Assembly: GCF_003334405.1 (NCBI RefSeq)
Contig: NZ_QOWM01000002.1
DNA: 64,000 nucleotides
Origin: Escherichia coli
Lineage (GTDB): Bacteria > Pseudomonadota > Gammaproteobacteria > Enterobacterales > Enterobacteriaceae
Reading direction: 5' to 3' (one strand)
Shown: positions 7,228 to 40,862 of the stretch, one piece after another
Layout: each line of letters starts with the position of its first letter
How positions within the stretch are numbered: position 1 is the stretch's first letter
Made by a program: the position numbers and the translations under genes
The notes under the pieces: model-generated
Seen by the model: the letters and a program-made list of their open reading frames with translations, nothing else
What the model was told of the DNA's origin: nothing
Databases searched by the model: none

Positions 7228-7524
7228 CAGTCAGCCCTGAAGAAGGCTGAAATAATGTTATGAAAGAGCGGGATTTTATCAAATTTCGTTATTGAGAAAC
7301 ATGCCTGCGTCACGGCATGCAAATTCTGCTTAAAAGTAAATTAATTGTTATCAAATTGATGTTGTTTTGGCTGAACGGTAGGGTATATTGTCACCACCTG
7401 TTGGAATGTTGCGCTAATGCATAAGCGACTGTTAATTACGTAAGTTAGGTTCCTGATTACGGCAATTAAATGCATAAACGCTAAACTTGCGTGACTACAC
7501 ATTCTTGAGATGTGGTCATTGTAA

Positions 7525-8600: not shown

Positions 8601-9668
8601 TTAATTGGTTGCCGGATATTCCTGAATGGTGACCTGCAGCGTTAACTGCTTATCATCACGCATCACTACTACAGGGATCACCGAACCAGGGCGAATTTCC
8701 GCCACCTGATCCATCGTCTCCAGAGCAGAGATGGCCGGTTTGTTATCCACCGAAATAATCAGATCGTTGACCTGAATACCCGCATTCGCCGCCGGGCCGT
8801 CAGGTGACACTTCATTAACCACGATCCCTTGCAGTTGATCTATACCACCGCCCTGCGCGTGCAGTGGTGCGATCTCACGTCCGCCGATACCAATGTAGCC
8901 GCGGATCACGCGACCATCGCGGATCAGCTTATCCATAATTTTGGTTGCTAACTGGAAAGGAATCGCAAAGCCGATACCTTCCGGCGTTTCGCCATCGTTA
9001 CTCTTATCAAACGACAGCGTATTAATGCCCATCAGTTCGCCCAGCGAGTTCACCAGCGCGCCGCCAGAGTTACCGTGGTTAATGGAAGCATCGGTTTGGA
9101 GGAAGTTTTGCCGCCCGGTCGGGTTCAGACCGATTCGACCCGTGGCACTAATAATCCCCTGGGTAATGGTCTGCCCGAGGTTGTACGGGTTACCGATCGC
9201 CAGTACTACGTCGCCAATGTGCGGTACGCGACGTGCATTAATTGGAATGGTAGGTAAACCGCCAGTGGCATTAATTTTAAGTACCGCCAGATCGGTTAGA
9301 GAGTCAGATCCCACCAGCAATGCTTCAAATACACGTCCATCCTGTAAGGCGACGATGATCTGATCGGCGTCGTTGATGACGTGTTTATTGGTGATGATAT
9401 AACCGCGTTGATCCATGATTACACCGGATCCCAGGGTGCGGATCTCAAGCTGGTTGTGAGAGTTGGTGTTCAAACCACGGTTGTAAACGTTAACCACCGC
9501 TGGCGCGGCGCGGCGAACCGCCAGATTATAGCTGGCAGGCGTCTCATCGGTACTGTCAAATTGCGGAGTGGAAAGCGGGTTAAGGCTGCGCAGCGAAGGC
9601 ATGGCAACCAGCAGAATAGCGCCGACAATTAATCCAATCGCAACGGAACGTAAGAGCTTCACAAACAT
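8601..9668 (-). CDS. degS: Periplasmic serine endoprotease DegS (sigma-E stress sensor)
   Basis: 355 aa, HtrA-family trypsin domain plus single PDZ. Confidence 0.94.
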   Translation of the reverse strand: MFVKLLRSVAIGLIVGAILLVAMPSLRSLNPLSTPQFDSTDETPASYNLAVRRAAPAVVNVYNRGLNTNSHNQLEIRTLGSGVIMDQRGYIITNKHVINDADQIIVALQDGRVFEALLVGSDSLTDLAVLKINATGGLPTIPINARRVPHIGDVVLAIGNPYNLGQTITQGIISATGRIGLNPTGRQNFLQTDASINHGNSGGALVNSLGELMGINTLSFDKSNDGETPEGIGFAIPFQLATKIMDKLIRDGRVIRGYIGIGGREIAPLHAQGGGIDQLQGIVVNEVSPDGPAANAGIQVNDLIISVDNKPAISALETMDQVAEIRPGSVIPVVVMRDDKQLTLQVTIQEYPATN

Positions 9669-37642: not shown

Positions 37643-39979
37643 ATGAAGCAAATTCGTCTGCTGGCGCAGTATTATGTTGACCTGATGATGAAGTTAGGTC
37701 TGGTGCGCTTCTCAATGTTGCTGGCGCTGGCCCTCGTCGTTCTTGCCATTGTGGTACAAATGGCGGTAACCATGGTGCTGCATGGTCAGGTCGAAAGCAT
37801 TGATGTTATTCGTTCTATCTTCTTTGGTTTGCTGATTACGCCGTGGGCGGTCTACTTTCTATCGGTGGTCGTCGAGCAACTGGAGGAGTCACGACAACGT
37901 CTGTCACGGCTGGTGCAAAAACTGGAGGAGATGCGCGAGCGCGATTTGAGCCTCAACGTTCAGTTAAAAGATAATATTGCCCAGCTAAATCAGGAAATTG
38001 CCGTTCGTGAAAAAGCGGAAGCAGAACTGCAGGAAACCTTCGGCCAACTGAAAATTGAAATCAAAGAGCGCGAAGAGACACAAATTCAGCTCGAGCAGCA
38101 ATCCTCATTCTTACGTTCCTTCCTTGATGCTTCACCCGACCTGGTTTTTTATCGTAACGAAGATAAAGAGTTTTCCGGCTGTAACCGCGCGATGGAGCTG
38201 CTGACCGGAAAAAGCGAAAAACAACTGGTTCACCTGAAACCTGCTGATGTTTACTCACCGGAAGCCGCCGCAAAAGTCATTGAAACCGATGAAAAAGTGT
38301 TCCGTCATAATGTGTCACTGACCTATGAACAGTGGCTGGATTACCCGGACGGGCGCAAAGCCTGCTTTGAAATCCGTAAAGTGCCGTACTACGACCGCGT
38401 GGGTAAACGTCACGGTTTGATGGGCTTTGGTCGCGACATTACCGAGCGTAAGCGGTATCAGGATGCGCTTGAACGGGCCAGCCGCGACAAAACGACGTTT
38501 ATCTCCACCATCAGTCACGAATTGCGTACACCGCTGAACGGTATCGTCGGTCTGAGCCGCATTCTGCTGGATACCGAACTCACCGCCGAGCAGGAAAAAT
38601 ATCTCAAGACCATCCATGTTTCGGCCGTCACGCTGGGGAATATCTTTAACGATATTATCGACATGGATAAGATGGAACGGCGCAAGGTCCAGCTTGATAA
38701 TCAACCGGTTGATTTCACCAGCTTCCTTGCCGATCTGGAAAATCTCTCCGCATTGCAGGCGCAACAAAAAGGATTGCGCTTTAACCTGGAGCCGACGCTG
38801 CCATTACCGCATCAGGTCATTACCGACGGGACGCGTTTACGGCAGATCCTGTGGAACCTCATCAGTAACGCCGTCAAATTCACCCAGCAAGGCCAGGTTA
38901 CCGTGCGCGTGCGCTACGATGAAGGCGATATGCTGCATTTTGAAGTGGAAGACTCTGGTATCGGCATTCCGCAGGATGAGCTGGATAAAATTTTCGCCAT
39001 GTATTACCAGGTGAAAGACAGTCATGGCGGTAAACCTGCCACCGGCACCGGTATTGGTCTGGCCGTTTCTCGTCGTCTGGCGAAAAATATGGGCGGCGAT
39101 ATTACGGTTACCAGCGAACAGGGCAAAGGTTCAACCTTTACGTTGACGATCCACGCACCGTCGGTAGCAGAAGAGGTCGATGATGCGTTTGATGAAGACG
39201 ATATGCCTTTACCGGCGCTGAATGTGCTGCTGGTGGAAGACATTGAACTGAACGTGATTGTTGCGCGTTCTGTGCTGGAAAAATTAGGTAACAGCGTTGA
39301 TGTCGCCATGACCGGCAAGGCGGCGCTGGAGATGTTTAAACCGGGCGAATACGACCTGGTGTTGCTGGATATTCAGTTGCCAGATATGACCGGGCTGGAT
39401 ATCTCTCGTGAACTGACGAAACGTTATCCGCGCGAGGATTTACCGCCGCTGGTGGCCTTAACCGCTAACGTGCTGAAAGACAAACAAGAGTACCTCAATG
39501 CTGGAATGGATGATGTGCTGAGTAAGCCGCTTTCTGTTCCGGCGCTAACCGCGATGATCAAGAAATTCTGGGATACCCAGGATGATGAGGAGAGTACGGT
39601 GACGACAGAAGAGAACAGTAAATCAGAAGCATTGCTCGATATTCCCATGCTGGAACAGTATCTCGAACTTGTAGGACCGAAGCTGATCACCGACGGGTTA
39701 GCGGTGTTTGAGAAGATGATGCCGGGCTATGTCAGCGTGCTGGAGTCGAATCTGACGGCGCAGGATAAAAAAGGCATTGTTGAGGAAGGACATAAAATTA
39801 AAGGTGCGGCGGGGTCAGTGGGGTTACGCCATCTGCAACAGCTGGGTCAGCAAATTCAGTCTCCTGACCTTCCGGCCTGGGAAGATAACGTCGGTGAATG
39901 GATTGAAGAGATGAAAGAAGAGTGGCGTCACGACGTAGAAGTGCTGAAAGCGTGGGTGGCAAAAGCCACTAAAAAATGA
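37643..39979 (+). CDS. arcB: Aerobic respiration control sensor kinase ArcB (hybrid histidine kinase)
   Basis: 778 aa: TM, PAS, HisKA (SHELRTPLN), HATPase, receiver, HPt domains. Confidence 0.96.
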   Translation: MKQIRLLAQYYVDLMMKLGLVRFSMLLALALVVLAIVVQMAVTMVLHGQVESIDVIRSIFFGLLITPWAVYFLSVVVEQLEESRQRLSRLVQKLEEMRERDLSLNVQLKDNIAQLNQEIAVREKAEAELQETFGQLKIEIKEREETQIQLEQQSSFLRSFLDASPDLVFYRNEDKEFSGCNRAMELLTGKSEKQLVHLKPADVYSPEAAAKVIETDEKVFRHNVSLTYEQWLDYPDGRKACFEIRKVPYYDRVGKRHGLMGFGRDITERKRYQDALERASRDKTTFISTISHELRTPLNGIVGLSRILLDTELTAEQEKYLKTIHVSAVTLGNIFNDIIDMDKMERRKVQLDNQPVDFTSFLADLENLSALQAQQKGLRFNLEPTLPLPHQVITDGTRLRQILWNLISNAVKFTQQGQVTVRVRYDEGDMLHFEVEDSGIGIPQDELDKIFAMYYQVKDSHGGKPATGTGIGLAVSRRLAKNMGGDITVTSEQGKGSTFTLTIHAPSVAEEVDDAFDEDDMPLPALNVLLVEDIELNVIVARSVLEKLGNSVDVAMTGKAALEMFKPGEYDLVLLDIQLPDMTGLDISRELTKRYPREDLPPLVALTANVLKDKQEYLNAGMDDVLSKPLSVPALTAMIKKFWDTQDDEESTVTTEENSKSEALLDIPMLEQYLELVGPKLITDGLAVFEKMMPGYVSVLESNLTAQDKKGIVEEGHKIKGAAGSVGLRHLQQLGQQIQSPDLPAWEDNVGEWIEEMKEEWRHDVEVLKAWVAKATKK

Positions 39980-40091
39980 CCCCGGCTAGACCGGGGTGCG
40001 CGAATACTGCGCCAACACCAGGGAAATCTTGGCTGCGCCGTAAATTATTATGATGAGTTACAAGGGCACAGCACTGTTTTTCAGGCCGCAC
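39971..40091 (-). ncRNA. arcZ: ArcZ (RyhA/SraH) Hfq-dependent sRNA, antisense to the arcB 3' end
   Basis: Minus-strand sequence GTGCGGCCTGAAAAACAGTGCTG...CCCCGGTCTAGCCGGGGTCATTTTTT matches the ArcZ sequence as I recall it and ends in an intrinsic terminator hairpin plus U-run. Confidence 0.85.
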
Positions 40092-40208
40092 GCAGTTAAG
40101 ATAGCAAAACTTAAATGATTTGTTACATGAATCAGTTAAATGTGTGATGCGTACCATTTTTATTAAAAAAATTAATGTGTTTCAGTCAATTGCGAAAGGA
40201 TGATCACA

Positions 40209-40862
40209 ATGAAGAAAATTGGCGTAATTCTGAGCGGATGCGGCGTCTATGACGGTTCTGAAATTCATGAAGCGGTGTTGACGTTGTTAGCTATTTCACG
40301 CAGCGGTGCGCAGGCGGTCTGCTTTGCACCGGATAAGCAGCAGGTTGATGTTATCAACCATTTAACTGGCGAAGCGATGACGGAAACGCGCAATGTGCTG
40401 ATTGAAGCGGCACGAATAACGCGCGGTGAAATCCGTCCTCTGGCCCAGGCCGATGCCGCTGAACTGGATGCGTTGATTGTGCCGGGGGGGTTTGGCGCGG
40501 CGAAGAATTTAAGCAATTTTGCCAGTCTTGGTAGCGAATGCACCGTTGACCGTGAATTAAAGGCGCTGGCACAAGCGATGCATCAGGCCGGAAAACCGCT
40601 TGGTTTTATGTGTATTGCCCCGGCGATGCTGCCGAAAATTTTCGATTTCCCGCTGCGTTTGACCATCGGTACTGATATCGATACCGCAGAAGTGCTGGAA
40701 GAGATGGGCGCGGAGCATGTGCCGTGTCCTGTCGATGATATCGTGGTTGATGAAGACAATAAGATTGTCACCACCCCAGCATATATGCTGGCGCAGAACA
40801 TTGCAGAAGCGGCGAGCGGCATTGATAAGCTGGTTTCCCGCGTGCTGGTTCTGGCTGAATGA
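40209..40862 (+). CDS. elbB: DJ-1/PfpI-family protein ElbB
   Basis: 217 aa [21 protein letters not shown]...; start moved to internal ATG. Confidence 0.9.

Follow-up and report, generated by a model that had tools for sequence, protein, structure and literature searches.

The minus strand at positions 39971 to 40091 of a 64,000-nt stretch of Escherichia coli DNA (contig NZ_QOWM01000002.1; hereafter the window) is arcZ (synonyms sraH and ryhA), the gene for the small RNA ArcZ (SraH/RyhA). The 3' end of this RNA lies antisense across the stop codon of the sensor kinase gene arcB. We are virtually certain of this assignment. A model that had seen only the letters and a list of open reading frames (ORFs) had proposed a 121-nt ArcZ at these positions, and this sequence-only reading was borne out by every identity test. 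Rfam release 15, run on the entire window at gathering thresholds, returned exactly two matches, ArcZ and a greA leader. The ArcZ match (RF00081; 39984-40091, minus strand) was far above the gathering score of 66, with 120.8 bits and an E value of 4.1e-27, and it covered the full model (positions 1-106 of 106). The model ends inside the terminator loop, and a terminator scan added the remainder down to 39971.

The record of E. coli K-12 MG1655 agrees to the base. It lists arcZ (b4450) as a 121-nt noncoding RNA (ncRNA) at 3350577-3350697 (+) and arcB (b3210) at 3350689-3353025 (-), with a 9-nt overlap. Window positions 39940-40210 (271 bp), which include the promoter and the terminator, are 100% identical to K-12; thus, 39971-40091 is exactly the annotated arcZ. 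The two loci share this 271-bp sequence, the 121-nt length, the arcB and elbB neighbors, and the 9-nt overlap. Nothing differs within the gene, and the only differences lie in the surrounding window. We found no evidence that contradicts the identity as ArcZ.

Further support came from the fold of the RNA and from its distribution. The minimum free energy fold of the 121-nt RNA was better than that of shuffled controls (z = -2.71). Among 5426 complete E. coli genomes, 5417 carried a 501-bp stretch around arcZ, 5264 of them with at least 99% identity. The expected synteny was also found, with arcZ on the minus strand, downstream of arcB on the plus strand and convergent to it. The sequence-only reading had warned that an ORF track cannot show this gene, and the RefSeq annotation of a strain with 100% identical DNA, made with the Prokaryotic Genome Annotation Pipeline (PGAP), illustrates the point by leaving arcZ out. 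ORF tracks and the PGAP annotation of most strains miss it.

The ORF list does hold a 62-aa minus-strand frame (39969-40157) that stays open through the whole of ArcZ, which raises the alternative that a small protein is the product of this interval. However, the mapped arcZ transcription start site (TSS) lies 66 nt downstream of its ATG, which is therefore not part of the transcript. In the 5' half of ArcZ, moreover, insertions and deletions between species ignore the reading frame while base pairing persists. We rejected the frame as coding and judged it spurious; the chance that it is the true product is vanishingly small. The features of the locus are collected in Table 1.

Table 1. Features at the arcZ locus of the window, with the basis for each call
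Feature	Positions	Strand	Basis or remark
arcZ gene, full-length 121-nt primary transcript	39971-40091	-	TSS G at 40091; Rfam RF00081; identity to K-12 b4450
Rho-independent terminator	39971-39997	-	8-pair stem 39997-39979, then CA, then U6 at 39976-39971
arcZ/arcB overlap	39971-39979		arcB AAA AAA TGA (Lys-Lys-stop) is the template complement of the ArcZ tail UCAUUUUUU
Processed active 56-nt ArcZ (putative)	39972-40027	-	RNase E site AG/AUU between 40028 and 40027 (slash, cut); cleavage from the literature
Conserved seed/RNase E specificity block CCCUGGUGUUGGCGCA	40008-40023	-	Exact match
5' stem-loop (GCUGUGCC/GGCGCAGC) of the unprocessed RNA	40032-40072	-	Rfam consensus structure
arcZ promoter, predicted	40098-40126	-	Position relative to TSS; conservation
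Conserved upstream block TCACACATTT..CTGATTCATGTAACAAA...	40098-40148	-	About 50 bp, nearly invariant in 21 Enterobacteriaceae
arcB, sensor kinase, 778 aa, convergent partner	37643-39979	+	ORF list; RefSeq annotation of identical DNA
elbB, neighbor on the other side	40209-40862	+	RefSeq annotation and translation; start 118 nt from the arcZ TSS

The 3' end of ArcZ was resolved by sequence and by published mapping. As the sequence-only reading had proposed, the RNA ends in a GC hairpin plus U-run: the terminator scan found an 8-pair hairpin (ACCCCGGTCTAGCCGGGGT) followed by CATTTTTT, on the minus strand only. This stem with its T6 run makes up the terminator and U-tail of a predicted Hfq-binding 3' module. 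Read on the plus strand, the hairpin leads into GCGCGAAUAC. Because the U-tract stands on the ArcZ strand only, the hairpin is not a canonical bidirectional terminator. Term-seq data (Adams et al. 2021, PMC7815308, supplementary file 1) place a strong ArcZ 3' end at K-12 3350696 (+) in three growth conditions and class it as internal to arcZ and antisense to arcB. This position corresponds to window position 39972, one base short of the arcZ annotation, and the transcribed overlap between arcZ and arcB is therefore 8 nt.

On the plus strand, arcB ends in ...GCC ACT AAA AAA TGA, with the TGA at 39977-39979 and CCCCGGCTAGACCGGGG directly after it. Since arcB runs to 39979 and arcZ ends at 39971, the two genes overlap as the sequence-only reading had described and as the K-12 annotation has it. 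The last two Lys codons and the stop codon of arcB template the ArcZ U-tail, and the genes thus share 9 bp (8 nt as mapped RNA). Read directly, the third base of the arcB stop codon is also the closing pair of the ArcZ terminator stem. The ArcZ terminator is in effect built into the end of arcB, with the Lys codons and stop serving as the U-tail template. ArcZ therefore has transcribed complementarity with arcB mRNA, as a 3'-end antisense RNA does, of at least 8 to 9 nt by Term-seq and annotation. A literature search for treatments of arcZ-arcB as a convergent or terminator pair, or by Term-seq, found nothing useful. As a separate observation, plus-strand positions 40032-40081 hold the mirrored ArcZ 5' stem-loop followed by ACUGUUUUU, a possible weak arcB terminator about 100 nt past the stop codon; Term-seq reports no 3' end at 40032-40081 (+) (PMC7815308).

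A sigma-70 promoter just upstream of 40091 had been suggested as a check, and here the outcome was divided. A strict two-hexamer sigma-70 consensus scan of 39800-40300 (cutoff, 9 of 12) found no promoter. The minus strand nevertheless carries a -10 element, TATCTT, at 40098-40103 with an extended -10 TG at 40105-40106 (TGcTATCTT), and a weak -35 element, GTAACA, at 40121-40126 that matches four of six consensus bases across a 17-nt spacer. The arcZ promoter escapes the strict scan because it combines an extended -10 with a weak -35, not because a promoter is absent. In an alignment of 21 Enterobacteriaceae, TTGCTATCTT was invariant and GTAACA was invariant or nearly so. From position and conservation we infer that the elements upstream of arcZ are the promoter and a presumed regulator-binding region.

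The features of the processed RNA were also present. AG/AUU, an instance of the RNase E motif R-N/W-U-U, lies at 40029-40025 directly 5' of the conserved seed, and the interval from 40027 to 39972 is exactly 56 nt. According to the review by Dubois et al. 2024, ArcZ is Hfq dependent, and RNase E cuts at R-N/W-U-U just before CCCUGGUGUUGGCGCA to give the active 56-nt 3' form (PMC11331407). Hfq dependence, processing to about 56 nt, and regulation of rpoS and other targets were all published on the identical K-12 sequence (PMC11331407, PMC4152358). From the window and this literature, a course of action can be proposed. The extended -10 promoter would start a 121-nt minus-strand transcript at 40091 that ends at the GC hairpin and U-tail (39971/39972). 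Hfq would bind the RNA, and RNase E would cut it between 40028 and 40027 to leave a stable 56-nt 3' fragment. The single-stranded seed would then pair in trans with many mRNAs, such that rpoS would be activated while flhDC, mutS, sdaC, tpx, and others would be repressed.

To compare the locus across species, we made one scan of species-representative genomes (about 300 Gb) with the 16-nt seed, which gave 120 loci. About half fell in unrelated phyla; these are the random hits to be expected when a 16-mer is searched against that much sequence, and they were discarded. Filtering for the seed with a downstream GCGC(A/G)CCCC and a T-run left 57 canonical Enterobacterales loci, the window and 56 others, to which the overlap counts refer; structure statistics refer to 56 distinct sequences. 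Across these sequences the 3' half of ArcZ was almost invariant. The terminator stem was paired in 96.9% of cells, and two of its pairs showed compensatory G-C to A-U changes in 12 to 13 of the 56 sequences. In the 5' hairpin, where the alignment is rough and 61.6% of cells were paired, all eight pairs had changed on both sides. The covariation score for the 5' hairpin and terminator exceeded that of 500/500 shuffles and of every slid control. Variation in the seed helix is precluded by the search pattern, which fixed its sequence.

In all 57 loci arcB was convergent to arcZ. An overlap of 9 to 11 nt was kept in 44 of them, spanning Enterobacteriaceae, Yersiniaceae, Pectobacteriaceae, Morganellaceae, and Hafniaceae; here ArcB ends in Lys-Lys, and AAA AAA T(G/A)A templates the ArcZ tail U(C/U)AUUUUUU. 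The overlap was 2 nt or less, or absent, in 12 loci: Pantoea (4), Tatumella (2), Mixta, Rosenbergiella, Hafnia, Morganella, Superficieibacter, and Pluralibacter. Loss thus falls in Erwiniaceae and a few others. In Pluralibacter, arcB reads AWVAGK-TAG at its end and the overlap is about 0. Because the overlap is kept in 44 of 57 loci and lost in scattered genera, it looks ancestral to Enterobacterales and repeatedly lost, which agrees with and slightly extends the review (PMC11331407). A different end was seen in Pantoea sp. 1.19, where arcB has seven A's instead of eight, so the frame bypasses the usual stop codon and closes with a TAG inside the loop of the ArcZ terminator (…EKNDPGL*), for an overlap of 23 nt. 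The variant may be real, or a homopolymer may have been misread in sequencing.

We then weighed what the arrangement may do. ArcB/ArcA would repress arcZ at low oxygen, and ArcZ would lower arcB expression, which together would give mutual negative feedback. Both directions of repression are stated in the review, along with binding of ArcA-P to the arcZ promoter region (PMC11331407). Several findings bear on this regulation. A search with a 15-bp ArcA box allowing up to 3 mismatches found no match upstream of arcZ or in 40098-40148; in the window as a whole it gave four matches, none near arcZ, a count not above chance. ArcA chromatin immunoprecipitation sequencing (ChIP-seq; Park et al. 2013) reports no site upstream of arcZ (PMC3798270), which conflicts with the review. 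Finally, the annotated complementarity amounts to only 8 to 9 nt, and shrinks to at most 2 nt or none in the 12 of 57 loci described above, which retain both genes. With neither an ArcA box nor a ChIP-seq site, the route by which ArcA represses arcZ is less settled than the review implies. Likewise, ArcZ can exist without a functional cis-antisense duplex, as those 12 loci keep both genes.

That the overlap is economical packing and nothing else seems to us plausible, if a little short of an even call. On this account the terminator happens to use the A-rich end of arcB, and all cross-talk between the two genes goes through trans pairing and ArcA-dependent transcription. The shared stretch of 8 to 9 nt is consistent with packing, as is the independent loss of the overlap in the genera listed above, from Pantoea to Pluralibacter, where seed and terminator are unchanged. 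It sits less easily with the exact register, in which the stop codon abuts the stem and Lys-Lys templates the U-tail, found in 44 of 57 loci from five families. This register indicates long-term retention, although retention alone is no proof of a regulatory role.

We hold as doubtful, though worth considering, that the overlap is a working cis-antisense module in which arcB mRNA runs into or through arcZ and a long duplex destabilizes both RNAs, with 9 bp as the annotated minimum. Reviews class ArcZ as a 3'-end antisense RNA of arcB (PMC11331407, PMC4152358). The terminator scan called no intrinsic terminator on the arcB strand from the arcB stop codon to elbB. Lacking such a terminator ahead of arcZ, arcB transcripts may extend over most of that gene as antisense RNA. 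The first hairpin with a U-run on the arcB strand mirrors the 5' stem-loop of ArcZ, with U5 following at 40077-40081, and a transcript that ended there would complement about 110 nt of ArcZ. However, this candidate terminator is weak because it has a 25-nt loop and only five U. In further support, Term-seq shows no 3' end on the arcB strand within K-12 3350300-3350699, a span that takes in the region from the arcB stop codon to elbB (PMC7815308). The review, however, calls arcB mRNA a "speculated" antisense RNA that destabilizes ArcZ (PMC11331407). From the other direction, Rho-dependent termination of ArcZ-strand transcription within arcB, as listed from bicyclomycin (BCM)/DirectRNA-seq data (peak at window position about 39207, K-12 3351461; Rho score of 15.2, p of 1e-68; PMC7815308), suggests read-through from ArcZ into arcB. 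The position of this peak is imprecise because the 800-nt upstream scoring window just reaches the ArcZ 3' end. The 12 loci in which the genes are separate or overlap by at most 2 nt also count against a cis-antisense module.

A still larger proposal, which we consider unlikely, is that the RNA overlap far exceeds 9 nt in both directions. Here arcB mRNA would be antisense to ArcZ as far as 40032-40081 and ArcZ would read through to Rho near 39207, forming a two-way transcriptional-interference or duplex module on top of the trans activity; the dual coding of Lys-Lys-stop and U-tail in 44 of 57 loci would then mark selection. The terminator, Term-seq, and Rho data allow a larger two-way antisense relation but do not show one.

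ArcZ shares parts of its design with known systems. Like MicL and RprA, which are processed by RNase E and depend on Hfq, it is a longer transcript cut to a stable 3' fragment that holds the seed and a terminator/Hfq module (PMC11331407). The seeds and targets of MicL and RprA differ, and neither stands tail to tail with a controlling sensor kinase. With convergent pairs that share terminators and with cis-acting 3'-end antisense RNAs, ArcZ has in common a shared hairpin sequence and complementary 3' ends, but its main documented action is in trans. The sequence-only reading had itself called the arrangement known, and rightly so by the K-12 annotation and the literature: the locus, its boundaries, the arcB overlap, the mutual repression of ArcZ and ArcB, and RNase E processing to 56 nt are already published. 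Descriptions of the arcZ locus and arcB overlap go back to 2001-2010, and a review appeared in 2024. ArcZ is biologically important in that it connects the ArcB/ArcA oxygen-sensing pathway with mutagenesis, motility, and the RpoS general stress response. The locus also serves as a clean positive control, in that the proposed sequence, coordinates, and strand were all exact from the letters alone.

Two ArcZ-like sequences in other species turned up during the comparison. In Serratia oryzae, a 23-nt stretch (L052, 1249-1277) is identical to the 5' end of that species' own processed ArcZ and lies just upstream of a minus-strand ATG, in front of a gene that is ADP-ribosylglycohydrolase-like by eye. 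Owing to this identity, the ribosome-binding region of the mRNA is perfectly complementary to the ArcZ seed, and the stretch is likely a perfect ArcZ target site or a captured fragment. Mixta sp. Marseille-Q2659 has a second short ArcZ-like copy (L088, 1712-1782, plus strand) with the seed and its own terminator, no 5' hairpin, and an Rfam score of 30 bits. This copy directly adjoins an IS1 element, with a Zn-dehydrogenase-like ORF downstream. In that genome the canonical ArcZ (L089) scored 62.6 bits, under the Rfam gathering score of 66.

The sequence-only reading had also called arcZ the one RNA gene in the window. It is the only ncRNA feature annotated in the matching K-12 region, and ARAGORN found no tRNA genes in the window, but the second Rfam match is a greA leader (RF01769, GraL region) at 61736-61857 (+), with 127.5 bits and an E value of 6e-23. 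Subthreshold Rfam matches at 60132-60214 to naRNA4 (40.5 bits) and ES036 (31.5 bits) are probably repetitive extragenic palindromic (REP)-type repeats between genes. The window aligns collinearly with K-12 3326668-3391868 (reverse complement) at 99.97 to 99.99% identity. Its sole structural difference is that it lacks, at about window positions 25114-25117, the IS5 (IS5R) copy that splits yhcE in MG1655, and the remaining 64 kb differ from MG1655 by about 10 substitutions or indels. Two of the ArcA-box-like matches lie at 7336-7350 (+) and 8805-8819 (-), with 2 and 3 mismatches, respectively. The former falls in the mdh-argR intergenic region (K-12 position about 3384532), upstream of mdh, which is an ArcA-regulated gene.

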